Made by a program: the position numbers and the translations under genes. Positions 3 through 30,341 of a stretch of DNA of 41,184 bases are shown piece by piece. The notes under the pieces are model-generated. The model was not told where the DNA came from, searched no databases, and saw only the letters and a list, made by a program, of their open reading frames with translations. Every line of letters starts with the position of its first letter. Positions within the stretch are counted from its first letter, which is position 1. Source of the DNA: a phage; the sequence record NC_093713.1, one strand, 5' to 3'.

Positions 3-746
3 CTTGCGGGAGTTCCGGAAGATGCGCCTCTCTGGACGGGAAGCCCGCCTTGCCAACCGTTTAGCGCGGCGGGAAAGCAACTCGGACAGTTCGACCCGAG
101 ACACCTCGCACCTGTGTTCCTCGACCTTATCAGCGAGTGCCGACCTCCAGTCCTCTTTGGGGAGCAGGTTGCGCCAGCAATTGCAAAATCGTGGATGTGC
201 GATTTACAAACTCACCTGGAAGGAGAAGACTACGCCGTCGGGTTTGCCGTACTCCCAGCTTGTAGCGTCGGCGCACCGCACAAACGCGACAGACTGTTCT
301 TCGGCGCGCACAGACTGGCCCACACCGGCGGTATCACTGATAACAAACGACGTGAACATGCGCAGCACAGACGGCAGGACGAAACCGAACAAACTGGGAT
401 GGGCCGCTGCGATGGCGGCTTGGCCTACACCGACAGCGAACGACTACAGGGGGAGCGGAGAGACAGTGATTCGCAAGGACGGGAAGGACAGGACATTCGA
501 CAGGCTGGACTACTCGACGGAGCAGGGTCTGAAAATAACACAACCTATTCGCATCACGGCTTCTGGTCAGATGCTGACTGGCTCGGATGCCGGGATGGGA
601 AATTCAGGCCAGTTGAACCCGGCGCATTCCCGCTGGCTAATGGGATACCCGCCAGAGTGGGACGATTGCGCGGTTATGGCAATGCCATCGTCCCGCAAGT
701 AGCCGCTGAATTTATAAAGGCATTCATGGGGGCGGTAAATGAGTAA
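3..746 (+). CDS. DNA (cytosine-5)-methyltransferase, 3' portion (N-terminus is at the window end, 41003..41184); conserved motifs are split between two reading frames
   Basis: Frame 3 carries PCQPFSAAG (motif IV), PHKRDRLFFGAH (motif VIII) and C-terminal GNAIVPQVAAEFIKA (motif X). Frame 1 carries WPTP repeats and LNPAHSRWLMGYPPEWD (motif IX-like). Both frames are open over ~700 bp. Confidence 0.6.
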   Translation, partial: LAGVPEDAPLWTGSPPCQPFSAAGKQLGQFDPRHLAPVFLDLISECRPPVLFGEQVAPAIAKSWMCDLQTHLEGEDYAVGFAVLPACSVGAPHKRDRLFFGAHRLAHTGGITDNKRREHAQHRRQDETEQTGMGRCDGGLAYTDSERLQGERRDSDSQGREGQDIRQAGLLDGAGSENNTTYSHHGFWSDADWLGCRDGKFRPVEPGAFPLANGIPARVGRLRGYGNAIVPQVAAEFIKAFMGAVNE

Positions 747-2163
747 GTTTCAAAGGCGCGAATACCAGAAGCTCATGACTTCGTTCATGCTGCGGCACCA
801 TCGCTGCAATATCTGGGCGAGCATGGGCAGCGGTAAGTCGGGGTCAACGTTGTGGGTTCTCAATCGACTGTTCCGTAATGGGCAACTTAATGACGACGAC
901 CGAGTGTTAATTCTGGCTCCTTTACGTGTTGCGTCAGGTACGTGGCCCGCGGAACAGGCATGTTGGAACTTCCCCTGTCTGAGTGTCGTAGACGCAACCG
1001 GTTCAGAGAAGCGCCGTATCGCGGCGCTGGAGTCAGATGCTAACGTGGTGTGCACAAACTACGAAGTTATCGAGTGGCTGATTGACTACTACGGCAAAGA
1101 CGACTGGCCTTTTACGGTTATCGTTGCTGATGAGAGCACGAAGCTGAAATCTTTCCGTAGCCGTTCTGGAGGAAGCAAACGGGCTAAGGCGCTAAGCAAA
1201 GTGGCGTTCGGAAAGGTTAAGCGTTTCATTAACCTGACAGGCACACCGTCGCCGAACGGCCTCAAGGACTTGTGGGGGCAGAACTGGTTTATCGACGCTG
1301 GCGAGCGCCTTGGTTCTTCGTACACGGCATTCACAGACCGCTGGTTTAACTCGGTACAGAAAGGGAAATCCGCGATGGCGCGGGAGTATCACGCACGACC
1401 GGGTGCGGATAATGAGATTCATCAGAAGATGAAAGACATTAGTCTCACGATTGACGCCGCCGAGTGGTTTGGATGTGAAGCGCCGATTATTGTACCAGTG
1501 GAAATTGACCTGCCGAAGAAAGCGCGTCAGGCATATACCGATATGGAGGAGAAGTTATTTGCGGAACTGGAGAGCGGAGAAGTGGAAGCGGCTAACGCGG
1601 CGGCGAAGACGTCGAAGTGTTTGCAGATTGCTTCTGGTGCTGTGTATGTATCAGGGCCAGACGGAGAAGCAACCAAAGACTGGGAGAAAGTGCACGACAC
1701 GAAACTGGATGCGCTGGAGTCAATTGTTGAGGAGTTACAGGGTGCTCCGCTACTGGTAGCCTATCAGTTCAAGCACGAACTGGAGCGTATCCTGAAACGT
1801 TTCCCGCAGGCGCAGGCATTCGCGAAAGGTGCTAAGGGTAATAAGCAGATGGAAGCATGGAACCGCGGCGAAATCGAAATCTTATGCGTGCATCCTGCGT
1901 CGGCCGGACATGGTTTGAATTTACAGGACGGCGGACATCATCTGGCATTCATCTCGCAAGGCTGGAACCTTGAGCACTATTTGCAGGTTGTCGAGCGCAT
2001 AGGCCCAGTTCGCCAGAAGCAGGCAGGCCACGAACGCCCGGTGTTCCTGTATCACATCGTTGCTAAAGACACACTGGACGAGGTTGTTGCCGCGCGTACC
2101 GACGAGAAGAAATCGGTACAGGAAGAGTTGCTTAACTACATGAAGAGACGAGGTAAGAAATGA
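739..2163 (+). CDS. SNF2/DEAD-like superfamily 2 helicase
   Basis: 474 aa; Walker A GSGKSGS, DExx-like VIVADEST, motif III LTGTPSPN; ATG with upstream G-rich SD; overlaps methyltransferase stop. Confidence 0.8.
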   Translation: MSKFQRREYQKLMTSFMLRHHRCNIWASMGSGKSGSTLWVLNRLFRNGQLNDDDRVLILAPLRVASGTWPAEQACWNFPCLSVVDATGSEKRRIAALESDANVVCTNYEVIEWLIDYYGKDDWPFTVIVADESTKLKSFRSRSGGSKRAKALSKVAFGKVKRFINLTGTPSPNGLKDLWGQNWFIDAGERLGSSYTAFTDRWFNSVQKGKSAMAREYHARPGADNEIHQKMKDISLTIDAAEWFGCEAPIIVPVEIDLPKKARQAYTDMEEKLFAELESGEVEAANAAAKTSKCLQIASGAVYVSGPDGEATKDWEKVHDTKLDALESIVEELQGAPLLVAYQFKHELERILKRFPQAQAFAKGAKGNKQMEAWNRGEIEILCVHPASAGHGLNLQDGGHHLAFISQGWNLEHYLQVVERIGPVRQKQAGHERPVFLYHIVAKDTLDEVVAARTDEKKSVQEELLNYMKRRGKK

Positions 2164-2297
2164 ACATAATAGCCCCGATTCCGGCATTACAAAAACGTAT
2201 CAAGGAACTTGAAGAAGAGGTTCTACGACTACGGCAGCAAAGAGACGCCGCTAATGCGCAACTGGCGTTTGTACTGGAGAAGTTATCGGAAGAGTAG
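2160..2297 (+). CDS. small coiled-coil protein (45 aa), hypothetical
   Basis: Hand-translated ORF MNIIAPIPALQKRIKELEEEVLRLRQQRDAANAQLAFVLEKLSEE; ATG overlaps helicase stop (ATGA); not in the ORF track because it is under 60 aa. Confidence 0.4.
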   Translation: MNIIAPIPALQKRIKELEEEVLRLRQQRDAANAQLAFVLEKLSEE

Positions 2298-2300
2298 AGA

Positions 2301-2333
2301 AAAGGCCCCGTTCGGGGCCTTAGTTTTATTTAT
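2301..2333. terminator. bidirectional rho-independent terminator between convergent helicase operon and tailspike
   Basis: AAGGCCCCG-TT-CGGGGCCTT stem with T-runs on both strands; near-identical sequence recurs at 14826..14856. Confidence 0.6.
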
Positions 2334-5280
2334 CTTCTAGTGCTGCCAACCTCTTATCGAACTCGCGCATCTTCTTACGCTGATAGGCAATCTCTATGAA
2401 GAACATCTGGTCCGCCCTAACCCCCCATCTGCCGCCGGGAGGGGATACTTGTACAGTCTGGCCATCTTCATCAATATCATACGCGGCTTCAATTGAGTCG
2501 TAGCACAAGAAAGCATATTTACAATCGGTAGAATCTTTCTCCATAAGCCCATGTTTGACCAAGATGTCTCGCACATCTTGGGCTATCACACCGAAGTGTA
2601 TCCTTGCCGTGTCGCCCTTGATTGCTAGGCTTTCAAGCCACTTAAAAGATATTACATGTATATCTTCCCATGCGGTAAGGAGTTGTCCCTCAATTTCCTC
2701 TTTGTTCGTCTTAAGCGTACCATCGGACGTGTTTATCGTACCGGTGGCCGCGTACACCGTAGTCCACCTGTTACCTGCCGAACCTAAAGACACTTGCGAG
2801 TCTAAGTAAGGAAGGAAATTGTTGAATGAGTAGAAGCCTCCTGACGCATACATAATAGCCCTGTTAGGCGTTGCATGGTTCGACCCGTACAGTTGCAGCA
2901 ACGCACCATCGGAACTGGACGCACCATCACCACCGCTAACTATCAGTCTTTGACTCGATGGGGTTTTAGTGGGGACTGTTTTTGAAATCAGCCCGTAATC
3001 ACCATCAAACCGTGCACGCACGGCAGACTGTTGTGTACCATCGTATTCCAGACCCGTTACATGCAGGGAGTACACGCTTACATCATTATCAAACGTTAAA
3101 GGTGCTTCTACATGACGTACACCATCTACCCCCATGACGACAGGTAGTGTACGGTTAGGCGTTGCTCCGTATTTGAAATCACGGGATACATACGGGTGGT
3201 CTTCAATCTTTATCCGGTAACTATATAAGTCAGCCGGATGCCCATCATGTTTGTACCATAACTTCGCACTGTTATCCCCTATGCTCCAGGGAGAGAAGAA
3301 GTCTTCCCCACCAAAGATATAGTACAACCAGCCATCTTTAACACAGACAGAGCCGACGCCGACAGCAGAGTTAACAATATGACCTTGATATATTTGGTCG
3401 GTAATATTAAACCACTGAACATCATCTAAAGATGAAGGCCAGGACGACACATTAACTTTGCACATAAAGGTCCGTGGATACGAACCTTCATAGCGGCGGT
3501 CCGGCTCGCCTCCTTCCCACTCGCCAAAGGCACGTTCTGTACCAAAGATGTAGAGATAGTCACCTACTTTAGCGAACGGAAGATTGGAGTGATGTACATT
3601 GTTCGGAAATCGCAAGTAGCTCCAGTTTTGCCCAGAATCGGTGCTCATCGCCAGTGTAGAGCCAGGGGAAGTAGGTAATGTGCCGCGTGTGGTAAGGTAG
3701 AGCACACCTCCATAACTTTTCACGCACGGTTCAGAAGCGTTATCAGCGTATGCCTGAGCGACAGTGCGACGAACGAATACGCCCGGGTTGTCATAAACGT
3801 TACTAAAATACAAGACGCCAAGACGACGAGGGGACACATCGCCGTTGTGGTAGCCGACAGCGATAGTGTAGTTAGTATCATCTATAACCGCAAAACTATG
3901 TGTCTCCGTGACACACAAATCAGCGTTAGTGGAGTATGCTACCCCCGGCAATTCGGTAATTTCCCACGGGCTGTCCCAGAATCGCGTTGCGAAGTTCCAG
4001 GCAACACCCGCATTGTTTATGGAGGAACTCGCAGGGCTTGAGAGCGTAACAGTGAACGTATTTCGGTTAATTATAGACGAAACCGTCATATTACCCGATA
4101 CGCCAGTTGCCGATGTATTAGAGAAGTTAACCGCATCTCCTGCTTTTAGGCCATGATTTTCTATGACAATGGTAGCAGTAGTGGAGCCAGAACTAATAGT
4201 TATTCCGCCGGTTGGGTGTCTGAAATACGGCATTGGGCGTGACCAAAGTTCTGCCTTCTTCATCCGCATATTAGATAAGTAGCGGGTTTCTATAACTGCA
4301 TATAATCGGTTGCCGCACGTACCCATGCTCATGCAGTGGTAGTTAACTCTGTCCGCAGAAACACTAGCATTATAGTCAGCATGGATTGGAGTCAACCACT
4401 CAGGCATTGACCAAGTCTGCCCGTCGTCACCAGAGCGAACCCAAGCTACATGTAAGTTTTGAACGCCATGTCGTTCGCCCGCCATAAACGGGGCGTAAAT
4501 AACATGGTCGTAGACGAAAGTTTTATCCTGCGTCCAAGCGTTGTAGAACGGGGTATCCGTCACCTTAGTTAGTGAGCCGTTAAAGAAGCCATCAGCTACA
4601 TAAGTAAGCGGTTGCCCGGCTACGCGCTCGTAAACGAATGCAGCATTCTTAAATTTACTAATGTCAGGTAATTGGGAAACTTTATAAGTCAAACCCCTGC
4701 CGTCTATAATCCAATTGTTGGGAGAAGCTGCTAATACATTAAAAATAGATTGAGTATCATCAGTTACACCGTCGCCCACGGCACCCCATGCGCGCGGGTC
4801 GTATTCGTCCTTCCATCGCGCCATATGTAAATCTGGGTACAGAATTGCACCGTTTACATCAGATATTTGCTGCCGCAGTATGACCGACCCGACGGGCTGC
4901 CACGCCCCATCTGCCACGCCACCGGTGGACTGCGGAGAAGATAACGCGGGGATAATTTTTGGTAGAGCACCCAACCAATAGTACCAATCCCCGTCACCGC
5001 CAGAGGACGACGGCCACAAAACTGCGGTGTTTCGGTCGTTAGCGGATAGTGTACCGCCTGACGTGAAATCAAAATCTGCCAGTTTAAAACCTGCGTCACG
5101 CAACACGGCGGGGAGTGTCTTCTGCGTCTGCCCTGTAACCTGATTTGTTGCGTAATCAATATCAGCACCAGTAGCAACACCACCGGATTTACCGGTGATA
5201 ACTTCGGCTTCGAAAATCTGGTGTTTCTTAGCGGTTTGTAAATCCGCCAGGCTTAAAACGTCACCGCATCCGCTTGACAT
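2326..5280 (-). CDS. tailspike, endosialidase-like, with C-terminal intramolecular chaperone (peptidase S74-like) domain
   Basis: 984 aa; two Asp-box motifs (SGDDGQTW, STDSGQNW); pectate-lyase-like WGAVGDGVTDDT; C-terminal GNRW...TINTSDGTLKTNKEEIEG resembling the autocleaving chaperone domain of endosialidase-type tailspikes; SD AGAGGA before the ATG. Confidence 0.7.
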   Translation of the reverse strand: MSSGCGDVLSLADLQTAKKHQIFEAEVITGKSGGVATGADIDYATNQVTGQTQKTLPAVLRDAGFKLADFDFTSGGTLSANDRNTAVLWPSSSGGDGDWYYWLGALPKIIPALSSPQSTGGVADGAWQPVGSVILRQQISDVNGAILYPDLHMARWKDEYDPRAWGAVGDGVTDDTQSIFNVLAASPNNWIIDGRGLTYKVSQLPDISKFKNAAFVYERVAGQPLTYVADGFFNGSLTKVTDTPFYNAWTQDKTFVYDHVIYAPFMAGERHGVQNLHVAWVRSGDDGQTWSMPEWLTPIHADYNASVSADRVNYHCMSMGTCGNRLYAVIETRYLSNMRMKKAELWSRPMPYFRHPTGGITISSGSTTATIVIENHGLKAGDAVNFSNTSATGVSGNMTVSSIINRNTFTVTLSSPASSSINNAGVAWNFATRFWDSPWEITELPGVAYSTNADLCVTETHSFAVIDDTNYTIAVGYHNGDVSPRRLGVLYFSNVYDNPGVFVRRTVAQAYADNASEPCVKSYGGVLYLTTRGTLPTSPGSTLAMSTDSGQNWSYLRFPNNVHHSNLPFAKVGDYLYIFGTERAFGEWEGGEPDRRYEGSYPRTFMCKVNVSSWPSSLDDVQWFNITDQIYQGHIVNSAVGVGSVCVKDGWLYYIFGGEDFFSPWSIGDNSAKLWYKHDGHPADLYSYRIKIEDHPYVSRDFKYGATPNRTLPVVMGVDGVRHVEAPLTFDNDVSVYSLHVTGLEYDGTQQSAVRARFDGDYGLISKTVPTKTPSSQRLIVSGGDGASSSDGALLQLYGSNHATPNRAIMYASGGFYSFNNFLPYLDSQVSLGSAGNRWTTVYAATGTINTSDGTLKTNKEEIEGQLLTAWEDIHVISFKWLESLAIKGDTARIHFGVIAQDVRDILVKHGLMEKDSTDCKYAFLCYDSIEAAYDIDEDGQTVQVSPPGGRWGVRADQMFFIEIAYQRKKMREFDKRLAALEDK

Positions 5281-5292
5281 ATAGAGTCCTCT

Positions 5293-7848
5293 TTAATTAA
5301 AACCATTGCTGAATCCGTCGGAGAAACCGCGGCCGTATGGCGCGACGCCGTCGTATTTATAGAATCCGTCGTCATAGTTGTAGCCCGTAATCTTGACCGT
5401 GCGGTCGTCGCCAGGGTCGATTGAAGAAACAACTATCTTCTGTGCATTATGCCTTGCTTCGTTGCCGAATGAAAACTCAGTTTTTAGTGCGCTATTCCCC
5501 GTGTAGATTGCCTCCTCCGGCGCGGAGAGCATAATCACCTCGCGGTCGTGACTTCCTTTGATAACGGAGATACTCTGTACGGAGCCGTCGCGCTTCTTAA
5601 GAATGATGGAGTGGTCGTCTCCGGGGGTAAACGTAACTGGCTGAGACAGTGTCAGCGTAAGCCCATTAACGGCGACAACATAACCATCCTGCGGCGCGAT
5701 ACGCGAGCCTTTAACCACGCTGATTACCCCTCCTGGGGTAGCGAGAGCACCTTCTTCCGTAGCTTCGAACTCTACGACAACTTTACTTAACGTGTTGCGC
5801 TGGTAGCGACGCCACGCCAGCCAATATGCCTGCTGATAGTTACGTACACCCTTCGATTCGTATTCCTCAGTGTTTGCACCGAGTTCTTCTGGGATATAAA
5901 TCGTCTCCTGTACGTTAGTATCCGGGTCGATGTATGAGAACGACAGGCTATCGTAAGTTGTCGAATCGTTGAACGTGCGTGTCCATTTCTCCGTGCCGGT
6001 AGTTTTGCTGCGGTGGGTGAACACCATCTCTGGCCCAGCAACCGGACGGTCGAAGCGCAACATAATATCCGCGCCTTTACGGTACGCAGTACAGAACACG
6101 GCTTCCGCTATAGTCTGAACGATGTCCTGCATCGTGGTGTCGTAGTCGTCGAACGTGTAGCAGAACTGCCCTGCCAATTCACTTCCGAAATAGGACTCAA
6201 TTTCTTCCTGCACAGCGAGTAACTTGTCCATGTTTGCGGTTGTCAGTTCTAAGTTACCTACCGCCGTGTCACGGGCCAGTCTGATTAGCGACTGCACGGC
6301 CTGAGTGTTTGGCGACATTACTGTATCGAATACCCCATTGCCGAGGTATTTGTAGCACATCTCGGTCGCAATCATGCGCAGTTCCGGGTTGTCGATACTT
6401 GCGGCCCGCGGCGTCTGTTTACGGGCGCAATGTACGGTAGTTCGGTTGCCGTAGTGCGGTGTGGTGTCCAGAGACTGACCGTACAGGTTGATGAAGGTTA
6501 TCTCGTCACTTACCGTGCCGTTGTAGTCTTTATCGAAATTCGTTATACGGCGCATGCGGGCGCGGAAACGCGATGCGGTTGGCAACTGCCCATAAATGGA
6601 CGTGCCGACGTAATCCGTGCTATTACCAGTAATCGTAGCCTGTACCGTGTAGATATCGCTCAACGGGTTGCGTTGAGAATCAATCATCTGGTACTGGAGT
6701 TCTACGGTTACGCTGGTGCGGTTATAGCCGCCGTCGTATTTGTAGAGGCCGTTCTGCCCGGCAACGTTAGCAAGCACCCGGTCAACTTCTCCGCGCACCA
6801 TGTAATACCAGTCTGTCAGGGATACGTCATAGGTGTTGCTAGGGCCGATAAACGTATCTGAACGCTCTGTTAGCGTGTACGTCCGCCCGCTGGTCAACGC
6901 GGCCCAGTTAGATGCACCGTTTACGGCTAATCTTACTTCGAAGTCGTCAACGTATAAAACCTCAAACGAGCCGTTCAGGTTAGTGACATCAGCAACGTCA
7001 AAGTTGCTCAGCACTGCCACATCACCGACGCTAAGAAACTCAGAAAAAGCAGAGTCACCCGACGGGTCATATAGGTAGCCGGTGGTCGAAATACGTTTGG
7101 CGGTTCCACCGGAGCTTGGGTTAGCCCCGATGTCGTTTGGCGCTTTCAGTACAATACCGTCAACGTCGTCGTTGGAGTATGTCACATAGAGTTTCTGGTC
7201 GATGACGTCGCCGATTTGTAGTTGCGGCGATGTGGTATTGTTCGGCGATGTATACGGCGCATACACGGCAACAGAGGAACCTGTGATGTCGCTTATCAGG
7301 GTGTCGCCCTCCGTGACGCCATCAGCCTCAATATGCAGATGTCCGCGCCCTGCGTCATAGTACGAATACTCCAGCAAAGCACCAGTGGAGTTGAACGCTT
7401 TATACGTCTGCATAAGGTCGTTAGGGATTGTCTGCACAGTCCCGCAGATGTCATAAGAGCGCTCGTAAGGGCGTGGTTTGTTTGAGCGGTCTGTGAGGCT
7501 GTTATTTGGCGATGTTGTCTGGTTGTTAGTCGCCGTATAGTTGGCGTTTGCGGACATGTTCAGGCCAAACAACTTAGCGATTGGCTTAAGGATAAAACCG
7601 AACACCTTACTAACTGCACCAAGCGCCCCGCTACCCGCACCCTCAATAATATGGTACACGGCGTCTTCGTCTTTAAGCGCTTCGAAGTCGTCTGTAACAT
7701 CAGTATCATCGCCAATCTCGCCGAGGTAGACGCGCACGGGCACACCGTCCGGAATACGGCTAACAACAAACTCCATCGGCATCCCGACGTGTTTTGTACG
7801 GTCGAAAGCGCCATCAGCGTTTCGCGTGTAGTGCAGGATTATCGCCAA
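5293..7848 (-). CDS. tail tip / central tail fibre protein (J-like host specificity protein)
   Basis: 851 aa; lies between distal tail genes and the tailspike; track start is TTG, in-frame ATGs at 7782/7776 are alternatives. Confidence 0.5.
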   Translation of the reverse strand: MAIILHYTRNADGAFDRTKHVGMPMEFVVSRIPDGVPVRVYLGEIGDDTDVTDDFEALKDEDAVYHIIEGAGSGALGAVSKVFGFILKPIAKLFGLNMSANANYTATNNQTTSPNNSLTDRSNKPRPYERSYDICGTVQTIPNDLMQTYKAFNSTGALLEYSYYDAGRGHLHIEADGVTEGDTLISDITGSSVAVYAPYTSPNNTTSPQLQIGDVIDQKLYVTYSNDDVDGIVLKAPNDIGANPSSGGTAKRISTTGYLYDPSGDSAFSEFLSVGDVAVLSNFDVADVTNLNGSFEVLYVDDFEVRLAVNGASNWAALTSGRTYTLTERSDTFIGPSNTYDVSLTDWYYMVRGEVDRVLANVAGQNGLYKYDGGYNRTSVTVELQYQMIDSQRNPLSDIYTVQATITGNSTDYVGTSIYGQLPTASRFRARMRRITNFDKDYNGTVSDEITFINLYGQSLDTTPHYGNRTTVHCARKQTPRAASIDNPELRMIATEMCYKYLGNGVFDTVMSPNTQAVQSLIRLARDTAVGNLELTTANMDKLLAVQEEIESYFGSELAGQFCYTFDDYDTTMQDIVQTIAEAVFCTAYRKGADIMLRFDRPVAGPEMVFTHRSKTTGTEKWTRTFNDSTTYDSLSFSYIDPDTNVQETIYIPEELGANTEEYESKGVRNYQQAYWLAWRRYQRNTLSKVVVEFEATEEGALATPGGVISVVKGSRIAPQDGYVVAVNGLTLTLSQPVTFTPGDDHSIILKKRDGSVQSISVIKGSHDREVIMLSAPEEAIYTGNSALKTEFSFGNEARHNAQKIVVSSIDPGDDRTVKITGYNYDDGFYKYDGVAPYGRGFSDGFSNGFN

Positions 7849-8204
7849 AATTCAATCTCCGTGTACGTGTCTCTGAGGTCCGCCAGCCTGTCAAGCCGTA
7901 CCTGACGAGAAGCAAGCTCGCAATGGCTAACCATCCCGTCGAAGTATACTCCTGCGTGCCACACGATACGTCCCCCGCGGCGATACCCCATAAGCACCGC
8001 GCAGAAGTTTTCAGGCTTATCAATTTTTGTAAGCCCCTTCGTGTCACGGTGGCCTTCGTCAAACGCTTCGTTAATCGCCGTTGGGCTTGTAACGTCGAAC
8101 GCCGGTGTCTCTAACCCGGCATCCGCGCGGACAATGCGCACGTGATGCCAGCAATTTCGTTTGCGAAAGTCGTATGGTATGCCCGTGTAGTCGTTAATAT
8201 TCAT
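7839..8204 (-). CDS. tail assembly protein, NlpC/P60-like papain-fold peptidase (lambda K-like)
   Basis: 121 aa; candidate catalytic Cys in NCWHHV and His in WHAGVY; position between minor tail genes and J-like gene. Confidence 0.45.
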   Translation of the reverse strand: MNINDYTGIPYDFRKRNCWHHVRIVRADAGLETPAFDVTSPTAINEAFDEGHRDTKGLTKIDKPENFCAVLMGYRRGGRIVWHAGVYFDGMVSHCELASRQVRLDRLADLRDTYTEIEFWR

Positions 8205-8716
8205 GTGGTCAACAGGCCGCGTAGTAACGGTATCTCTTTAGGTGTCATCAGTATACCAGTGCTTCGTTGGTTCAGCATAGGTGTACCGACATCTGCGGAG
8301 AACTCGCCCTTCTCTTGGTTGATGGCCTGCAACTCATACACTACAGGGCCGTCAGCCGGATAAGACAGGTCTGTGCTAACGTAGCGGCGGAATACGAACT
8401 TCGGCAACTCGGTGTTACTCATCGGGATTTTATCCATCTCATCGTCAAGTTGATTGAAAATATCCGGTAAAGTAAACGTCGTCGTCTGGTCCATATCACT
8501 GTTGTTAGCGGCCCCCGACGCCTCCATCGGGGTTGGCTCAAACGTGATAGTTTCGCCTGTCTCCAGTGTTGCCGTAAGTTCCTGTAGCCCGCGCACAAGA
8601 TAGTATGTCTTTGACAGCAACGGGTGGCTGATTTGCAACGTGATGTAATCCATCTCGCCGTCGGGATTTGAAGCCAGCTTACGGCGATAGGCTGCTTCTA
8701 CTGATTCCTGGCTCAT
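8201..8716 (-). CDS. minor tail protein (lambda L-like position)
   Basis: ATG at 8716 overlaps upstream stop (ATGA); the track ORF extends to a TTG at 8731. Confidence 0.45.
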   Translation of the reverse strand: MSQESVEAAYRRKLASNPDGEMDYITLQISHPLLSKTYYLVRGLQELTATLETGETITFEPTPMEASGAANNSDMDQTTTFTLPDIFNQLDDEMDKIPMSNTELPKFVFRRYVSTDLSYPADGPVVYELQAINQEKGEFSADVGTPMLNQRSTGILMTPKEIPLLRGLLTT

Positions 8717-9213
8717 TGCATCGGGTCCCAAATTCGTGGAAACGTTGATTGTGCAGTTCCGTAGGCTTTAAGGAAACACCCCAGCCCGTCACCATAGCAA
8801 CCGTACAAATCCGGCAGATTGTTAATCAGGCACTGGTTCTCCAGGTCCTGAAACGGCGATTTCTCGGCGGTTGCCGTGAAGGTAATTGTCCAGTTAATGC
8901 CGTCTTCGGTGGACTCCGCGATGGTGGACGTGATGGTTACCTGATAATCCTCGATACCCATGCCGAAGTCGTGCGCCATCCAGAAACTTGACGCACCACC
9001 ATCGACTTTCTCAAGGAACGACAGAAACGCTTGCCGCCCCAGCGCCGATGTGAGCAGGGTTACGCTTATCGGGAACACGTCGTAATACGTGTCACGACCC
9101 TGACGTACCCCGCCGCCAGCTAAATCTACACTCCAGACGTTGTTACGTCTGGTCATCGAGTAGCCTTTCGATACAATTGGCTTAAGGCTACGTGGGAAAT
9201 ATAAGTCGCTCAT
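8713..9213 (-). CDS. minor / distal tail protein (lambda M-like position)
   Basis: 166 aa immediately downstream of tape measure; start overlaps tape measure stop (TAATG). Confidence 0.45.
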   Translation of the reverse strand: MSDLYFPRSLKPIVSKGYSMTRRNNVWSVDLAGGGVRQGRDTYYDVFPISVTLLTSALGRQAFLSFLEKVDGGASSFWMAHDFGMGIEDYQVTITSTIAESTEDGINWTITFTATAEKSPFQDLENQCLINNLPDLYGCYGDGLGCFLKAYGTAQSTFPRIWDPMQ

Positions 9214-24219: not shown

Positions 24220-25470
24220 TTAAAGTGCGAAAGTCACGGGGATGTTGATTACTGGTTTAACAACCGGCATCTCGTAAACTACAGGATAGCCGAGGGCATC
24301 CGCCATATGGTCAATGATGCCGTCTTTAGCTGGCTCTCCGTTATCGTCGTATGCCTGCTGTTCCAGCGTCTTTGCTATCTCAGGGCATAAGTGGTCGTTA
24401 ACCCACAGCTTACCTTTTTCCAGTGCGGTATTCACGGCTAAAACACGGTCTTTAACCGGAGGGTTGGCGGATTTAGCGCGAACATCGAAACCTGCCTGCT
24501 GGAGTAACGCAATATCTGAGATTGACGCCGAGTTGGTCTTGCGGTTCTTGCCGCTGGCGTCCGGGTAAACGACTATGCGGTGGCCCTGCGACTTCCACTT
24601 CTCAGTAATTACGCGCACGGTATCCGGTGTATCGAACAGGCCTTTCAGTTCTGCTACCGCGTGCCAGCCGTCTTTACGTTGCACATACACGGCGCTTGCG
24701 TTCTTCGTAACGTTGAAGTCCTGCCCGATGTACAACGTGTCGCCCGGTTGAATTACCTCTTTGCTGCGGTGCTTACGGCGGTCATATGCGTAATACACGC
24801 TGCCGGAGGTAAGGTTGACGAACTCACCATTCAGATACGCGTTAATCAACTGCGCCGGATAAGTCTCGGTCAGCGAACTAATGTAGTCAGGTGGCAGGAA
24901 TCGCGCGTTCTCGTGTGTAGAAGCCTGCACCATCGAGTAACTCGGCGTCGGGTTCTCTTTGAACTTGGCGTAGACGAACTTGAACCCTTCCGGTGTCGTG
25001 GTGACAGAGATGTGGTTAATTACGCCAGGAATAACAAGACGCATACGGGCCACAATTTTGTTCCACGCCAGTTCAGCTTTCTCGCGGCTCAATACATCCA
25101 GCTCATCCACGACTGCCGCAGCGATTTTGAAGCCGACGATAGAGCCTGGGTTATCCATCGAACGGCAGATAACAGTTCCGAGAACCGTCTTACCGCGAGT
25201 AACCACGACTTCTTTGTCGCCAGATTTAACCAGCACATCGAGGCCGAGCAGGTTAGCGGCTTCCTCAAATGTCGGGTAGAAGATGTCACGGATAGCCGGG
25301 TATGTCGGGCCGAAGTAACCCAGGCGCGTACCTGGATGCTTGAGCATAAACGTAAGCAGGTCAAGGCAGCCAACAAATGTCTTTCCGCTGCCGAAGCCGC
25401 CGACATATGCCTTATATTTGTTATCACAATTCAGGAACAGCGCCTGCGGTGCGGATAGCTGAATACTCAT
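24220..25470 (-). CDS. terL: terminase large subunit
   Basis: 416 aa; Walker A GGFGSGKT and Walker B AAVVDELD; overlaps TerS stop. Confidence 0.85.
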   Translation of the reverse strand: MSIQLSAPQALFLNCDNKYKAYVGGFGSGKTFVGCLDLLTFMLKHPGTRLGYFGPTYPAIRDIFYPTFEEAANLLGLDVLVKSGDKEVVVTRGKTVLGTVICRSMDNPGSIVGFKIAAAVVDELDVLSREKAELAWNKIVARMRLVIPGVINHISVTTTPEGFKFVYAKFKENPTPSYSMVQASTHENARFLPPDYISSLTETYPAQLINAYLNGEFVNLTSGSVYYAYDRRKHRSKEVIQPGDTLYIGQDFNVTKNASAVYVQRKDGWHAVAELKGLFDTPDTVRVITEKWKSQGHRIVVYPDASGKNRKTNSASISDIALLQQAGFDVRAKSANPPVKDRVLAVNTALEKGKLWVNDHLCPEIAKTLEQQAYDDNGEPAKDGIIDHMADALGYPVVYEMPVVKPVINIPVTFAL

Positions 25471-26051
25471 TCCTCTACCTCACCCATATTCGTTGTTACA
25501 ATTTTACCTACAGGCTCTGCAACACTAAAAATAATCTCAGTCGGTGCCGTTTCTTCGGTGGATTCGACTGGTTTCTCTTTACCGAGGCCCAGTTTAGCTG
25601 CGGCGAACGTAGCAGAGATGCCCGCGGCCCCTGTCTCAGTGAAGTACGCCTCTTCCAGTGCCTGTGCTGTCTCGTATGCTTCTGCAAATGCGGGAATCTC
25701 GCGCAGCCACAGCTTAATAATCGGGATAGTGACGCCTATGTGCAGGGCGAAGCGGGCCAGTGACGGAGGTTTATCCTGAATCAGCGGGCGTTCGTCACCC
25801 TTAGACGTAGGCACAAGCTCCCATGACGTGCGGTCGAAGAACTCGATTAACGCGTCGCAATAGTCCGGGTCCCACAACGCTGCGGAATTACGGGATGATT
25901 GATAAAGGCTCTGTTTACCGCGCGGTCGCTTACGGCGGCGGTTTGCGCTAACAGCTTCTTCATGTGCAGCTTGCACCACCTCTGGCGATGGCTGCTTGAG
26001 TTTCAGCTTCATAGAATCCCCTTGCATATGCGTCTGACCATCAGAGCGCAT
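25467..26051 (-). CDS. terS: terminase small subunit (putative)
   Basis: Position upstream of TerL; basic N-terminal region; probable ATG at 26012 (MKLKL...) with SD AGGGGA. Confidence 0.55.
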   Translation of the reverse strand: MRSDGQTHMQGDSMKLKLKQPSPEVVQAAHEEAVSANRRRKRPRGKQSLYQSSRNSAALWDPDYCDALIEFFDRTSWELVPTSKGDERPLIQDKPPSLARFALHIGVTIPIIKLWLREIPAFAEAYETAQALEEAYFTETGAAGISATFAAAKLGLGKEKPVESTEETAPTEIIFSVAEPVGKIVTTNMGEVEE

Positions 26052-26109
26052 CAGACGCGCCCTACGCGTCTAAAGGGATTATATAAGGGGATTGGGCGGG
26101 ATGTACAGA

Positions 26110-26130
26110 AAAGCCCTCCGTAGAGGGCTT
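26110..26130 (-). terminator. rho-independent terminator between the small-gene operon and terS
   Basis: GCCCTC-TACG-GAGGGC followed by TTTTCTGT on the - strand. Confidence 0.6.
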
Positions 26131-26144
26131 GTGTGTTGGTTATT

Positions 26145-26315
26145 TTACAGTTCTGCGGATGTCAGATGGCTGGCCGCGGCTTTAACCGCATCTTTAAGGT
26201 TAGCATACGCGGAAGTAAAAGACGTATGCGCCCCTTTTGAGATAACTGTAACGCCGCCGTAATGGTCGTTAGCTACGGGAATGGCCCAGGTGTTAGGGAT
26301 GATTAGTAGTCTCAT
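26145..26315 (-). CDS. small protein (56 aa), hypothetical
   Basis: Hand-translated MRLLIIPNTW...; ATG overlaps upstream stop (ATGA). Confidence 0.4.
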   Translation of the reverse strand: MRLLIIPNTWAIPVANDHYGGVTVISKGAHTSFTSAYANLKDAVKAAASHLTSAEL

Positions 26316-26470
26316 TTGAAGAAACCATCCTTGACAAGCTGACGGTATAGTTTAGCTGCGTAACGCTCTGCCTGGCCTTTGCGCCGAAATATTTTCCCAT
26401 TAACTGAATACTTATTTAACTCTGGCTCGTACCAAACTTGGTTGTCGATGAACTCCAGAATACTAATCAT
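26312..26470 (-). CDS. small protein (52 aa), hypothetical
   Basis: Hand-translated MISILEFIDNQVWYEPELNK...; ATGA coupling at both ends. Confidence 0.4.
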   Translation of the reverse strand: MISILEFIDNQVWYEPELNKYSVNGKIFRRKGQAERYAAKLYRQLVKDGFFK

Positions 26471-26703
26471 TCCCCACTCCCCTCTTTAGCAATACGTTGC
26501 TCTGTTTTAGTAATACCCCGGCGCGTGAATAACACCGGGCTTGTCTTAACGTGCGTCATCAGACGATTGTTATAAATTACGTGGCGCTCGCAATCGACGT
26601 CTTTGCTGTACTTCGCAATCGTCATTTCGTTGATGCCGGTTTGTCTGCATGTCTCAGCCATCGTGCCAAATTCTTTAATCAGGTTCGGAATGCTGGTAAT
26701 CAT
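26467..26703 (-). CDS. small HTH-like protein (78 aa)
   Basis: ATG at 26703 overlaps upstream stop; MAETCRQTGINEMTIAKY resembles an HTH; the track ORF (to 26727) uses a GTG in the same frame. Confidence 0.45.
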   Translation of the reverse strand: MITSIPNLIKEFGTMAETCRQTGINEMTIAKYSKDVDCERHVIYNNRLMTHVKTSPVLFTRRGITKTEQRIAKEGSGE

Positions 26704-26876
26704 CCTAAAAAATTCCTCGTTGTCCACATCGCATTCGGATATTTATTATCACGGTCCTGTACCACAGCAATCATGTTTCCGCGTTGCACCAGGCAGAAGT
26801 GCCGTTGTTGTTCACCGTTGTAGCGACGCCAGATTGCTTCTTCGATTGCCGCATTAATGTCACTGAACATAATCAT
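26700..26876 (-). CDS. small protein (56-58 aa), hypothetical
   Basis: Hand-translated MIMFSDINAAIEEAIWRRYNGEQQRHFCLVQ...; ATGA coupling to both neighbours; overlaps the GTG-extended track ORF in another frame. Confidence 0.4.
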   Translation of the reverse strand: MIMFSDINAAIEEAIWRRYNGEQQRHFCLVQRGNMIAVVQDRDNKYPNAMWTTRNFLG

Positions 26877-27055
26877 CCCACTATCTCATCACCAAGCCAC
26901 GCCGTTTCTCGTATATCGTCGACCACACAGGCGGCGTGCTCACGGCTAATTGCAAAAATGTAGAAACTAAACTTCTTCCCGTCGGCGTCGATATGGTTAA
27001 CCGAGTAGGGTTTCCCCAGGACACCATCAATTACTACTGGTTTAGTCGACTCCAT
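26873..27055 (-). CDS. small protein (60 aa), hypothetical
   Basis: ORF track; stop overlaps the next start. Confidence 0.4.
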   Translation of the reverse strand: MESTKPVVIDGVLGKPYSVNHIDADGKKFSFYIFAISREHAACVVDDIRETAWLGDEIVG

Positions 27056-27299
27056 ACGCTTTACCGCATTTTAAGCATGTGACTCGATGCACCCCATCAA
27101 CTAAATGCAGGCGGTAATCATGCTCGCAGGCGTTCATCTTTTCCTCTTCTCCTCTCAACAACATGAGAAGAACCTTAAATGCGGCTAACTGGTACTCACC
27201 GTTAATCGACAGTTGCCCGCCTAGCGTCTGTTTCTCCGACTCAAGCACCAGAATACGGCGCTCGAGCGATGCGATTGTGATTTTAGGCATTGGTATCAC
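27042..27299 (-). CDS. small protein (85 aa) with C/H cluster, possible zinc-binding
   Basis: CEHDYRLHLVDGVHRVTCLKCGKAYG. Confidence 0.4.
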   Translation of the reverse strand: MIPMPKITIASLERRILVLESEKQTLGGQLSINGEYQLAAFKVLLMLLRGEEEKMNACEHDYRLHLVDGVHRVTCLKCGKAYGVD

Positions 27300-27471
27300 C
27301 TTTGTTCAGGTTGAAGCGGTTAATAAGTTCGCGGCGTTGTTCCATGAGGATGTCTACTTTATTAGCGTAGTAAGTAATCATCTGATCGAGACAGGCAATC
27401 TGGCTCTCCCCACCTGCGGCGGGTTTCAGGGCTGCTGCGACACATGCTTTTTCGTATTCGTTGTTAGTCAT
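27283..27471 (-). CDS. small protein (62 aa), hypothetical
   Basis: ORF track; overlaps neighbours. Confidence 0.4.
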   Translation of the reverse strand: MTNNEYEKACVAAALKPAAGGESQIACLDQMITYYANKVDILMEQRRELINRFNLNKGDTNA

Positions 27472-27625
27472 TTTTACGCGCTCCCCACATGCGATTGAGA
27501 TACTTGTTCTTGTCCGGCCCAGGGAAACTGTTACGTTTCATCAGTTCCTCGCGTGTCGGGAACGGGGCGTGACTGACTTTACGGCCTACTCGTAACGGTT
27601 GGCTTACTGGGCCTTGTTCGCTCAT
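27464..27625 (-). CDS. small protein (53 aa), hypothetical
   Basis: Hand-translated MSEQGPVSQPLRVGRKV...; SD AGGAGA; ATGA coupling. Confidence 0.4.
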   Translation of the reverse strand: MSEQGPVSQPLRVGRKVSHAPFPTREELMKRNSFPGPDKNKYLNRMWGARKND

Positions 27626-27771
27626 TTCTTCTCTCCTGCATAAGCTGCTTTAAGTGTCTGCATCGCAGCGAACCAGAACGCGTCCGCTGGAATGCTGTTG
27701 CTCAGGTTACTAACGGCGATGCGTGCCATCAGTTGTGCGTCTTTGAATGCTTCGATGTCTGTGATTTTCAT
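27622..27771 (-). CDS. small protein (49 aa), first gene of the operon
   Basis: Hand-translated MKITDIEAFKDAQLMARIAV...; SD GGAG. Confidence 0.4.
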   Translation of the reverse strand: MKITDIEAFKDAQLMARIAVSNLSNSIPADAFWFAAMQTLKAAYAGEKK

Positions 27772-27804
27772 TTTCTCTACTCCGTTCTCGTTGTCGATGG
27801 AGTA

Positions 27805-27833
27805 AATATAATAGGGTCTAAGGTAATAGTCAA
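27805..27833 (-). promoter_or_regulatory. sigma70-like promoter (TTGACT-N17-TATATT) for the small-gene operon
   Basis: Hexamers with 17 nt spacing just downstream of two terminators. Confidence 0.5.
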
Positions 27834-27855
27834 CTAGTCATTACAGAAAACAGAT

Positions 27856-27887
27856 AAAAAAAATCCCGGCTGGGGCAGGGCCGGGAT
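27856..27887 (-). terminator. rho-independent terminator
   Basis: ATCCCGGC...GCCGGGAT stem followed by T8 on the - strand. Confidence 0.7.
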
Positions 27888-27926
27888 AAAACTGGAGAGC
27901 AGAGGGATGGAACAGGAGGTGATTTA
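27860..27926 (-). ncRNA. candidate small RNA, ~60-70 nt, containing an anti-Shine-Dalgarno-like AUCACCUCCU
   Basis: TTGACA-N17-GATACT promoter (27955..27927) followed ~60 nt later by a T8 terminator; no ORF on either strand. Confidence 0.25.
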
Positions 27927-27960
27927 AGTATCGTCGGATTAGTCTCAGGTGTCAATTGGT

Positions 27961-27988
27961 AAAATAAAACCCGGATTCGCGGTCCGGG
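27961..27988 (-). terminator. rho-independent terminator after the lysis genes
   Basis: CCCGGA-CCGCGAA-TCCGGG followed by TTTTATTTT on the - strand. Confidence 0.65.
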
Positions 27989-28117
27989 TTTCGGTCATAA
28001 GCCCTGAACCCTACGCAGTCTCCACCGCTTGGGCTGCTGCTTCGGGTTTACCGGGGCTTAGTATGCAAGCACAAGCAGCGTAGGGATAAGTTTACTAAAC
28101 GCCTTCGTATTCGTCCA

Positions 28118-28603
28118 TCATTTAACAGCCCTCCCAATAGCCTCAGCCTCTTGCCACGGTTTACCGTCGAACAGCGCCAGACGCCCGGCTGTACGGCGAC
28201 GCAGGCCAAGTAGTGGTTTGCCGTTCTGGTTGATGAACAGCGCCAGCTTAGCCCGCAGTGTTGCAGTATCACCAGAACGCAGTGCCTTGCCTGCGCCCGT
28301 AGTAGACGCAATCACGCCAGCACCTGCGTTATAGACCAGGTCGCACACTGCATCAAACTGCGCCTGTGTCAGGGAGTGGTGTGCTGCTGCGTCAACCGCA
28401 GCTACAGCCTTAGCCATATCACGATTCAGTAACAGGAGGCCTTGCCCTGGCGTGATGGTCTTACCTGGTGTTACGTCTGGCCCGTAGTGACCATAACCAA
28501 TAGTCAGGTACTTCTCGTTCGGCGTAGCGCGATACGCAGTTCCGCGGAATCCCTCGAACGCGGCACAGAAATGCAATCCATTATCTGAAATATTTCGAGA
28601 CAT
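28118..28603 (-). CDS. endolysin, phage lysozyme (glycoside hydrolase family 24-like)
   Basis: 161 aa; N-terminal FEGFRGTAYRATPNEKYLTIGYGH consistent with the T4 lysozyme catalytic E/D/T region. Confidence 0.75.
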   Translation of the reverse strand: MSRNISDNGLHFCAAFEGFRGTAYRATPNEKYLTIGYGHYGPDVTPGKTITPGQGLLLLNRDMAKAVAAVDAAAHHSLTQAQFDAVCDLVYNAGAGVIASTTGAGKALRSGDTATLRAKLALFINQNGKPLLGLRRRTAGRLALFDGKPWQEAEAIGRAVK

Positions 28604-28853
28604 GCTTATGTCCTCCGTATGACAGCCACGCCTGGCGAATCTGGCGCAGCGCGACTAATGTGATTAATGTCTCAGGCAGCGTAGGCGACATGCTGCCCTG
28701 TAACAGGTGAATACATCCGGCGGCACAGACGATAGCAGTCAGGATATAGAGAACACGCCCGAACAGCCCGTCGTCCACGCGTTCATTATACACGTTGAAC
28801 AGGGACGAAGCGCCCATTGAAAGCATTGTGACAAACCAGAATAGCTCAGTCAT
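28581..28853 (-). CDS. membrane protein between holin and endolysin (holin/antiholin-like)
   Basis: ATG at 28853 preceded by AGGAGG; two hydrophobic segments; the track ORF extends upstream in frame. Confidence 0.45.
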   Translation of the reverse strand: MTELFWFVTMLSMGASSLFNVYNERVDDGLFGRVLYILTAIVCAAGCIHLLQGSMSPTLPETLITLVALRQIRQAWLSYGGHKHVSKYFR

Positions 28854-29154
28854 GCGGTCCTCCTGGGCGGGCAATATCGCCGCCCGATACGATGCCAGAA
28901 AGGCGGGAATAGATAGGCATCCAGAGAATGGCAATGATGAATCCGAGGCCAGCTATCTCGCGCTCACCGGTAATACCAAACCATTGAGCCGCAAGAGGTG
29001 CGCCAAATACGGCGCAAGTGAAGCCAGTTGCAATAAAGCAGAAGCCGTCAATAGGGCCAGAAATAACGGACTTATGTTGCCTTAGTCCGATTACCCCACC
29101 AGCTAGTGCGGCGGCGAGAAGCCACCCCGTCACTGTTTCAGTAAATTTATCCAA
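28846..29154 (-). CDS. holin (putative), TTG start
   Basis: 102 aa with hydrophobic segments, directly upstream of the endolysin; only in-frame start is TTG with SD GGAGGA 6 nt upstream. Confidence 0.55.
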   Translation of the reverse strand: MDKFTETVTGWLLAAALAGGVIGLRQHKSVISGPIDGFCFIATGFTCAVFGAPLAAQWFGITGEREIAGLGFIIAILWMPIYSRLSGIVSGGDIARPGGPHD

Positions 29155-29160
29155 GATGAA

Positions 29161-29198
29161 TCCTCCAGGTGCGTATTAAGTATGCAGTAACTGGAGGA
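29161..29198 (-). promoter_or_regulatory. hairpin sequestering the holin Shine-Dalgarno sequence
   Basis: 8 bp stem TCCTCCAG / CTGGAGGA with a 22 nt loop; the 3' arm is the SD of the TTG-initiated holin. Confidence 0.45.
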
Positions 29199-29229
29199 TA
29201 CCACGGGTAGGAATTATCCTAATAGTTGT

Positions 29230-29523
29230 TTATTTATGTCTCCAGATGTATTGGCGTCTCTGCGGTTTCGTCGGAATATCATCGTATCCCAACGATTTCC
29301 AGTAATTAAATAGCCGATTAGCGATTGCTGCGCGTTCCTGTGTTTTAAACTCACCGAGATTCACAGCCTTCCCGTTCTGGAATCCACAGGCGCGGACCGC
29401 TTTGCGTCTGGCCTGAATCTCGGGGTACAGTGCATTACGGCGGCGCTTGTGTATACGCGTATTCGCTCTCGGCGACAGCGGCGCAAGGCCGCTTCGTTTC
29501 AGGATGTCAGTTGCTAACGACAT
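29230..29523 (-). CDS. basic protein (97 aa), hypothetical
   Basis: ORF track; TAATG overlap with the upstream gene. Confidence 0.4.
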   Translation of the reverse strand: MSLATDILKRSGLAPLSPRANTRIHKRRRNALYPEIQARRKAVRACGFQNGKAVNLGEFKTQERAAIANRLFNYWKSLGYDDIPTKPQRRQYIWRHK

Positions 29524-29744
29524 TATTTCTCCTGTTTACCAAGTCGCTTAGGTGAGCAGATAGCGCGTACCTCCGAATCGTTGGGCTTGTCGCCCTGAAA
29601 CAGGAAGTGCGCGTTCTCTGCGGCGCGTGCCGCTGACTGGCACGCCTCCATCGAGTAAAACGTTTCTGATGCCGCCAGATGCATCTGACCCGTGGACAGC
29701 ACCCAGATAAATAAGATGCTGGTCATCAGAAGTATTCCCCACAC
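29523..29744 (-). CDS. small protein with N-terminal hydrophobic segment (secreted or membrane)
   Basis: ORF track; MTSILFIWVLSTG hydrophobic N-terminus, two Cys. Confidence 0.35.
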   Translation of the reverse strand: MWGILLMTSILFIWVLSTGQMHLAASETFYSMEACQSAARAAENAHFLFQGDKPNDSEVRAICSPKRLGKQEK

Positions 29745-30274: not shown

Positions 30275-30305
30275 ATTCTGTCTCCCCTCTCGTTTGTGTA
30301 AATGA

Positions 30306-30334
30306 ATAGTAGCCTATTCTATCTTAGTGTGCAA
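30306..30334 (-). promoter_or_regulatory. sigma70-like promoter (TTGCAC-N17-TACTAT) with conserved palindromic element
   Basis: Element TGAATAGTAGCCTATTCTAT at 30303..30322. Confidence 0.5.
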
Positions 30335-30341
30335 GTAAATT

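Follow-up and report, generated by a model that had tools for sequence, protein, structure and literature searches.

Genomic context and identity of the tailspike gene

The question raised by this locus is which receptor the phage tailspike recognizes, and whether its enzymatic part is of one kind or composite. The window (the whole stretch of 41,184 nucleotides that was analyzed, NC_093713.1) is a Kagunavirus, a K1G-like siphovirus, and is 93-94% identical to K1-dependent kagunaviruses. Its tailspike gene is one ORF, exactly 2326..5280 on the minus strand, encoding 984 amino acids from an ATG start. The gene is the sole spike gene of the phage and occupies the standard locus, immediately after the J-like tail-tip gene (5293..7848), which ends at 5293, in synteny with K1G. 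This location and a conserved N-terminal anchor characterize Kagunavirus/Guernseyvirinae tailspikes, and both were found. The gene and its flanking signals are as follows.

2326..5280, minus strand: tailspike precursor, predicted endosialidase (endo-N-acetylneuraminidase) of the 63D/K1G type (ORF, identity; 108.2 kDa)
5287..5292, minus strand: RBS AGAGGA, 6 nt before the tailspike ATG (sequence read)
2302..2321, no strand assigned: GC-rich hairpin AAGGCCCCGTTCGGGGCCTT, T-runs on either strand (sequence; Shashou annotation)

An RBS is annotated at the equivalent position in the GenBank record of 63D. The hairpin AAGGCCCCGTTCGGGGCCTT separates the tailspike gene from a convergent small ORF (2160..2297, plus strand) and is likely a bidirectional terminator; the Shashou annotation has terminators at the corresponding site on each strand. 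No tRNA genes and no Rfam matches were found in the tailspike region, and promoter-like sites occurred there only at chance level. Strong homology spans the whole length of the gene, and the ORFs that lie wholly inside it on the opposite strand or in other frames (e.g., 4854..5183, 3908..4156, and 2555..2809) were treated as spurious.

At the nucleotide level the gene was 96-97% identical to the tailspike genes of K1G, K1H, 63D ("Phage #D"), JSSK01, ULINTec2, and UTI89UKE1. The protein was 98.2% identical to the K1G spike (ADA82273; 18 substitutions), 98.1% identical to that of UTI89UKE1, and 97.6% identical to the biochemically characterized 63D endo-N-acetylneuraminidase (BAA32990, AB015437). 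The spikes of 63D, K1G and K1H (annotated as "tailspike 63D sialidase"), JSSK01 (ORF40), ULINTec2, UTI89UKE1, and fTaEco also match it in length (984 aa), in domain order, and in following the J-like tail gene. Judged by its sequence, the spike is a new allele of a known protein and not a new protein; the endosialidase identity is already known, proteins about 98% identical having been sequenced and tested before. The gene product is thus almost certainly a tailspike that both binds and destroys the receptor, in a Kagunavirus dependent on the K1 capsule (K1G/K1H/63D-type siphovirus). What we observed directly is the sequence, the conservation of domains and residues, and the genomic context. 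Nothing in the sequence speaks against this best explanation.

Domain layout, motifs, and active-site residues

The protein was divided into the following parts by Pfam, structural relatives, and sibling spikes.

4861..5280, minus strand: N-terminal anchor for attachment to the virion, about aa 1-140, with Tail_spike_N at aa 97-131 (sibling identity, Pfam, GC)
4582..4860, minus strand: conserved linker (ILYPDLHMARWKDEYDPRAWG) and endosialidase N-terminal extension (PF12218, aa 167-233), including GDGVTDDT (Pfam E 9.6e-38)
3202..4581, minus strand: catalytic beta-propeller (PF12217, aa 234-693; Pfam E 1.6e-224, profile positions 1-367 of 367)
3982..4230, minus strand: beta-barrel inserted into the propeller (PF12195, aa 351-433; Pfam E 1.6e-40)
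2728..3201, minus strand: stalk/tail-spike domain (PF12219, aa 694-851; Pfam E 6.6e-74)
2329..2727, minus strand: C-terminal intramolecular chaperone domain (Peptidase_S74, aa 852-984, 15.2 kDa; Pfam, PDB 3gw6, S911/K916 alignment)

The preliminary description, made from the letters alone, had proposed an endosialidase-type tailspike, and the domain analysis bears this out. End_N_terminal, End_beta_propel, End_beta_barrel, End_tail_spike, and Peptidase_S74 all matched well over their cut-offs, and the endosialidase accessory domains (the N-terminal extension with GDGxxDDT, the inserted beta-barrel, and the stalk) were all present. The best PDB matches were all endosialidases. Over aa 166-851 the spike was 78.9% identical (1306 bits) to PDB 4hiz, which we take to be the crystal structure of the phi92 endosialidase gp143, and over the crystallized part it was 52% identical (about 770 bits) to K1F endoNF (PDB 1v0e). 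The family presumably corresponds to CAZy GH58. K1F endoNF (gp17; PDB 1v0e, 3gvj-l, and 3gw6) served as the mechanistic reference: it shares with the window spike the domain architecture, two Asp-boxes, GDGVTDDT, the catalytic residues, and a Ser/Lys self-cleaving chaperone domain.

Four short motifs were located by motif search, the Asp-boxes also by alignment to K1F and to PNJ1809-36, a phAPEC8-like myovirus.

4411..4434, minus strand: Asp-box 1, SGDDGQTW, aa 283-290
3622..3645, minus strand: Asp-box 2, STDSGQNW, aa 546-553
4753..4776, minus strand: GDGVTDDT, aa 169-176
2710..2727, minus strand: SDGTLK, aa 852-857

Loose Asp-boxes numbered two, where a shuffled protein would be expected to have 0.0175; for GDGVTDDT and SDGTLK the chance expectations were 0.0005 and 0.022. 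The two Asp-boxes noticed earlier lie at aa 283 and 546 and correspond to positions 362 and 610 of K1F endoNF, whose GDG motif is at 248, and in the PNJ1809-36 endosialidase all four motifs occur at corresponding positions (78, 192, 454, and 760, the Asp-boxes being at 192 and 454). Since the counts far exceed expectation and the positions correspond in both endosialidases, the motifs are confirmed as real and not due to chance.

Global alignment to K1F gp17 placed five putative active-site residues on the minus strand.

4468-4470: H271
3826-3828: R485
3730-3732: E517
3685-3687: R532
3532-3534: R583

These align with endoNF H350, R549, E581, R596, and R647, respectively, residues that have been named as catalytic or sialic-acid-binding (PMC12632334), and all five are conserved. 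A spike that only binds polysialic acid, being an endosialidase homolog without catalysis, is therefore hard to credit: none of the 18-24 scattered differences from the K1G and 63D spikes touches a listed functional residue, and the gene is the only spike gene of the phage, at its standard locus. Nothing specific favors such a spike beyond the general point, conveyed by the title of Jakobsson 2007 as listed in PMC5380687, that single substitutions can separate binding from cleavage in endosialidases.

Conservation in the stalk was less complete. K1F Q853, which we take to be one of three residues forming the polysialic-acid binding site of the endoNF stalk, aligns with L794, so that one of the three is not conserved and processivity may differ from that of endoNF.

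The C-terminal chaperone domain and its predicted cleavage

A C-terminal self-cleaving chaperone had been proposed from the SD...LK segment, and this assignment was upheld. Peptidase_S74 (PF13884) matched aa 852-912 with 48.8 bits against a cut-off of 22, directly after PF12219, and the C-terminal part of endoNF (PDB 3gw6) matched aa 756-984 with E 1.5e-55. S852 (2725-2727) and K857 (2710-2712) align with endoNF S911 and K916 and keep the S-x4-K spacing at the cleavage site, where the motif reads SNGERK in K1F versus SDGTLK in the window. The Ser/Lys self-cleavage mechanism is described in PMC3828593, which cites Schulz 2010. Cleavage is predicted before S852, with K857 as general base. The maturation cut of K1F is placed between residues 910 and 911 in its GenBank record (AM084414, mat_peptide), and the last residue of the 4hiz chain aligns with T851. 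The mature tailspike is thus predicted to end at T851, the two products having masses of 92.9 and 15.2 kDa.

Receptor, proposed mechanism, and host range

Both K1G and K1H depend on K1. Experiments on near-identical proteins, the 63D enzyme and JSSK01 ORF40, agree with the polysialic acid (K1) receptor proposed in the preliminary description; these proteins are 96.5-98% identical to the window tailspike (nucleotide or amino acid), and endo-cleavage of alpha-2,8-polysialic acid has been reported for them (PMC3594737; PMC5380687; PMC11641727). JSSK01 ORF40 was reported to be 97.76% identical to the K1G spike, and the recombinant protein was located at the end of the tail and removes the K1 capsule (PMC11641727). 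Cloned endosialidases with enzymatic activity include that of 63D (PMC3594737; PMC5380687), and ULINTec2 is K1-dependent (PMC8541614). By analogy with these phages, the K1 polysialic acid capsule should be the primary receptor.

Enzymatic activity, trimerization, autocleavage, and K1 dependence are all expected from close homologs, and a scheme can be proposed on that footing. [quoted passage not shown] This domain would then remove itself by Ser852/Lys857-catalyzed cleavage between T851 and S852, giving a 93-kDa mature spike that would dock onto the Kagunavirus tail tip through its N-terminal ~140 residues. The beta-propeller (aa 234-693, with its inserted beta-barrel) would bind alpha-2,8-polysialic acid and cut it internally via E517, R532, and R583 (plus H271 and R485), allowing the virion to tunnel through the K1 capsule to the outer membrane, where the adjacent J-like tail-tip protein (5293..7848) would presumably make irreversible contact. 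From the homology of stalk and chaperone to endoNF and 4hiz, which are trimeric, a trimer is expected; a homotetramer, by contrast, is what Machida 2000 (cited in PMC5380687) reported for the enzyme of 63D.

A broader specificity deserves consideration, in which the spike would cleave both alpha-2,8 and alpha-2,9 sialyl linkages, as phi92 does, and the phage would use K92-type capsules as well, not being strictly K1-dependent. The closest solved relative over the catalytic part and stalk is 4hiz (78.9% identity, versus 52% for K1F), and the phi92 endosialidase gp143 is reported as bifunctional on both linkage types in PMC13450770, where Schwarzer 2015 is cited. For the 63D/K1G type, dual action is hypothetical: the recorded hosts of near-identical spikes are all K1 strains (sequence records; PMC11641727; PMC8541614), and about 21% of residues differ from 4hiz. 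We regard it as possible but rather unlikely.

The practical value of these results lies in annotation, as they mark the window as a K1-capsule-dependent Kagunavirus with a predicted host range of E. coli K1, neonatal meningitis, UPEC, and APEC O18:K1 strains among them. K1 phages and their endosialidases already serve as therapeutic and diagnostic tools. The main call of the preliminary description is right, but the finding is ordinary, and no open question becomes newly testable through it.

Modular structure of the spike

The anchor and the remainder of the protein have different relatives. Residues 1-60 were at least 90% identical to the tailspikes of K1ind1, NTEC3, and Shashou, which have unrelated bodies, with divergence from about aa 60-140 onwards and similarity gone beyond about aa 120-140; aa 1-138 were about 70% identical to Salmonella Jerseyvirus spikes. 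The anchor-coding segment (4861..5280) has a backbone-like GC content of 0.531. The spike is modular, with a Kagunavirus-specific anchor (about aa 1-140) joined to a lower-GC endosialidase cassette.

K1ind1, NTEC3, and Shashou (K1-independent and other kagunaviruses) carry their spikes at the same locus as the window, and these spikes showed no endosialidase domains, GDG motif, or Peptidase_S74. The K1ind1 body has Phage_spike_2 and a sub-threshold HK620-type C-terminal match, consistent with its GenBank note, and the Shashou body has a G7C-type domain and a weaker, sub-threshold similarity to GDSL esterases. The PNJ1809-36 spike is 74.5% identical to the window spike over aa 133-984, including the SDGTLK cleavage motif, whereas its N-terminal attachment module is entirely unlike (16% identity), in keeping with a spike that attaches to the baseplate of a myovirus and not, as in the window, to the tail tip of a siphovirus. 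Residues ~85-245 of K1F align with the Kagunavirus N-terminus at 38% identity, and K1F has an additional N-terminal segment of ~80 residues, presumably the T7-gp17-type attachment region, without counterpart in the window spike.

The GDGxxDDT motif

A GDGxxDDT motif near residue 160 had been taken as pectate-lyase-like and atypical of a pure beta-propeller sialidase, and as a hint that the enzymatic domain might be composite. The motif itself is present (GDGVTDDT, aa 169-176), but it is not atypical: it lies inside PF12218 and is conserved in K1F gp17 and PNJ1809-36 and in the crystallized catalytic fragments of 4hiz and K1F endoNF. In a composite enzyme the motif would mark an additional catalytic element of the pectate-lyase (beta-helix) type, and with it a second glycan specificity besides polysialic acid. 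The motif does resemble the start of the pectate-lyase-like beta-helix profile PF12708, and AVGDGIADDT occurs in the beta-helix tailspike CBA120 TSP1 (4oj5) after the same kind of N-terminal domain. When aa 1-166 and aa 153-248 were scanned separately against Pfam with E up to 10, however, the only match to such a domain was a sub-threshold one to PF12708 (E 0.086; 13.1 bits, the cut-off being 27) that took in 20 of the 213 positions of the profile and lay wholly inside the PF12218 region, and a pectate-lyase or composite domain was rejected. PF12218 (E 9.6e-38) fully explains residues 167-233 and the propeller begins right after them, which leaves no stretch to hold a beta-helix; moreover, the motif is absent from the sibling kagunavirus spikes whose bodies are of other kinds. 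We therefore consider the composite reading essentially refuted and its probability very slight. The correction that follows is that GDGxxDDT does not signal a second enzymatic module.

The motif was also considered as a module-swap junction within Kagunavirus and was rejected in that role, as K1ind1, NTEC3, and Shashou diverge upstream of it and lack it. The linker ILYPDLHMARWKDEYDPRAWG and the GDG motif are together conserved in K1F gp17, PNJ1809-36, and PDB 9vvr, 9vvr matching the window spike only in the N-terminal region and in one further stretch. A speculative idea, to which we give little weight, is that the linker and GDGxxDDT extension (aa ~141-233) may be what remains of a beta-helix (pectate-lyase-type) tailspike cap, kept by endosialidases as a shared joint for swapping propeller and beta-helix cassettes between phage families; that the 63D-type enzyme might share the dual alpha-2,8/alpha-2,9 specificity of phi92 is a separate and equally tentative thought. 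Linker and motif occur together in 9vvr and the motif in the CBA120 TSP1 beta-helix spike, yet the swap points seen within Kagunavirus lie upstream of the motif.

Endosialidase tailspike of the K1G and 63D type

The tailspike gene forms exactly one ORF with an ATG start, preceded at 6 nt 5' of the ATG by a ribosome-binding site (AGAGGA); the preceding tail gene has its stop codon at 5293. Domains and motifs were identified by Pfam comparison and motif search, respectively.

Domains and motifs of the tailspike (2326..5280, minus strand, 984 aa; positions in aa)
97-131, Tail_spike_N (E 4.9e-13)
167-233, End_N_terminal (E 9.6e-38)
169-176, motif GDGVTDDT
234-693, End_beta_propel (E 1.6e-224, full-length profile match)
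283-290, Asp-box SGDDGQTW
351-433, End_beta_barrel, inserted (E 1.6e-40)
546-553, Asp-box STDSGQNW
694-851, End_tail_spike (E 6.6e-74)
852-912, Peptidase_S74 (48.8 bits, cut-off 22)
852-857, motif SDGTLK

Every motif named in the preliminary description was thus recovered, and none is attributable to chance, since only 0.0175 loose Asp-boxes, 0.0005 GDG motifs, and 0.022 SDGTLK motifs were expected per shuffled tailspike (2000 shuffles). The GDG motif and both Asp-boxes occur at corresponding positions (248, 362, and 610) in K1F gp17 (endoNF), and all four motifs in the endosialidase of the phAPEC8-like myovirus PNJ1809-36 (78, 192, 454, and 760).

Comparison with solved structures returned endosialidases without exception as best matches. 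The closest was 4hiz (aa 166-851, 1306 bits), which we take to be the phi92 endosialidase gp143, followed by K1F endoNF (1v0e/3gvj-l, ~770 bits); the endoNF C-terminal chaperone construct 3gw6 matched aa 756-984 (E 1.5e-55). Over aa 166-851, identity was 78.9% to 4hiz and 52.0% to K1F. Within the phage collection, the full-length gene showed 96-97% nucleotide identity to those of UTI89UKE1, K1G, K1H, and "Phage #D" (63D, AB015437), and the same range held for JSSK01, ULINTec2, fTaEco01/03, and other tailspike genes. Protein identity was 98.2% to K1G ADA82273 ("tailspike 63D sialidase"), 97.6% to 63D BAA32990, and 98.1% to UTI89UKE1. The Pfam domains, structure matches, and near-identical K1G and 63D proteins support the earlier proposal of an endosialidase tailspike. 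It is a new allele of a protein that was first described in 1998-2000 and that many sequenced phages encode.

The GDG motif was previously considered atypical of a sialidase and suggestive of a composite enzyme, but it lies within the endosialidase N-terminal extension PF12218. The crystallized fragments of 4hiz and K1F carry SAVGDGATDDT and SAKGDGVTDDT, and in K1F, PNJ1809-36, and our tailspike the motif is accompanied by a conserved linker, ILYP[DE]L..ARW.DE.D.R.WGA. The beta-helix spike CBA120 TSP1 (4oj5) has AVGDGIADDT in the same relative place. The likeness to beta-helix spikes is real, but what our tailspike shares with them is a short motif rather than a domain. Pectate-lyase-like PF12708 scored 13.1 bits against a cut-off of 27, over 20 residues only. 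The proposal of a composite enzymatic domain is thus unsupported.

Catalysis, maturation, and receptor

The working mode of the tailspike can be inferred from homology, with residues checked in the sequence. We take endoNF R837, S848, and Q853 to be stalk residues of a second polySia site; in the alignment to K1F gp17, R837 and S848 are conserved and Q853 is replaced by L794. Residues H350, R549, E581, R596, and R647 of endoNF, which are catalytic or sialic-acid-binding and mutation-intolerant (PMC12632334), align to identical H271, R485, E517, R532, and R583. According to PMC13450770, phi92 gp143 acts on both alpha-2,8 and alpha-2,9 linkages.

In endoNF, once the protein has trimerized, the Ser-Lys pair S911/K916 cleaves away the intramolecular chaperone domain (PMC3828593, with reference to Schulz 2010 and Schwarzer 2007). 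These residues, within SNGERK at the K1F cut site, align to S852/K857, which together with the Peptidase_S74 match supports the proposed self-cleaving C-terminal chaperone. In the K1F GenBank record the maturation site is annotated between residues 910 and 911, and T851 aligns to the last residue of the 4hiz crystal chain. From these three correspondences, a 108.2-kDa precursor is predicted to release a domain of 15.2 kDa and leave a mature spike of 92.9 kDa. A review table gives the 63D enzyme as 108 kDa (PMC5380687), and the same review reports it as a tetramer, citing Machida 2000. Homology to trimeric endoNF and 4hiz and the trimerizing chaperone domain predict a trimer for our tailspike.

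The JSSK01 spike, reported as 97.76% identical to that of K1G, was located at the tail end by immunogold labeling, and a K1 strain lost its capsule upon exposure to the recombinant protein (PMC11641727). Cloned, enzymatically active endosialidases include 63D (PMC3594737), and ULINTec2 is K1-dependent (PMC8541614). From these experiments on near-identical proteins, we infer that the primary receptor is the K1 polysialic acid capsule, in agreement with the initial proposal.

Modular organization of the spike

Spikes of three other kagunaviruses (K1ind1, NTEC3, and Shashou) shared at least 90% identity with the tailspike only over aa 1-60, and likeness was gone beyond ~aa 120-140. For K1ind1, the GenBank note describes an HK620-type body, and Pfam gave Phage_spike_2 and, below threshold, an HK620 C-terminal match; the body of Shashou has G7C-type domains with weaker GDSL esterase similarity (GDSL lipase match sub-threshold). 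Pfam detected no endosialidase domains in the Shashou and K1ind1 spikes, which have only the N-terminal anchor in common with true endosialidase spikes. The annotations "tailspike endosialidase" (Shashou, MK931440 2501-4873) and "tailspike 63D sialidase" (K1ind1, GU196279 3332-5497) are misleading.

Salmonella Jerseyvirus spikes were ~70% identical over aa 1-138. Window positions 4786-5265 (aa 6-165) align along their length with K1F gp17 aa ~85-245 (38% identity), which in K1F follow an ~80-residue N-terminal segment, and tail fiber N-termini of Kayfunavirus and other T7-like phages match the Kagunavirus spike N-terminus at 31-32%. These alignments suggest common ancestry of the attachment region in siphovirus and podovirus spikes. 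GC content was 0.531 in the anchor, 0.523 in the J-like gene, 0.481 in the endosialidase cassette, 0.464 in the chaperone domain, and 0.513 across the window, which fits an acquired cassette.

Genome context

The window is a Kagunavirus (Guernseyvirinae) genome with the gene order of K1G: tape measure, minor tail proteins, J-like protein, tailspike, and convergent helicase and methylase genes. Its backbone is mosaic. The structural half (1-25000), where the tailspike lies, is most similar to the K1-dependent phages UTI89UKE1 and fTaEco (93-94%), and the replication/lysis half (25001-41184) to the kagunavirus K1ind1 (96.8% nucleotide identity), which is K1-independent and has another spike. Searches of the whole window found neither tRNA genes nor Rfam families at the gathering threshold.

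Features around the tailspike gene
4..702 and 114..746, plus strand, long overlapping ORFs in different frames
2160..2297, convergent 45-aa ORF (weak DUF1192 coiled-coil match)
2302-2321, perfect 8-bp GC-rich hairpin, T-runs either side on both strands
5293-7848, minus strand, J-like 851-aa tail-tip protein
7839-8204 and 8713-9213, minus strand, small tail proteins

The J-like and two small tail proteins matched no Pfam family at E<=0.001 and are conserved across Guernseyvirinae; a secondary (outer-membrane) receptor-binding determinant is presumably among them. Irreversible adsorption would probably proceed via the adjacent J-like protein.

The counterparts of the first two ORFs in K1G are annotated as "C-specific methylase" and as "Mte8-like protein." ORF 114..746 has a weak C-5 methylase match, and the methylase gene appears cut off by the window start. 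The hairpin, located between the tailspike gene and the 45-aa ORF, is likely a bidirectional terminator separating late and early/middle transcription units.
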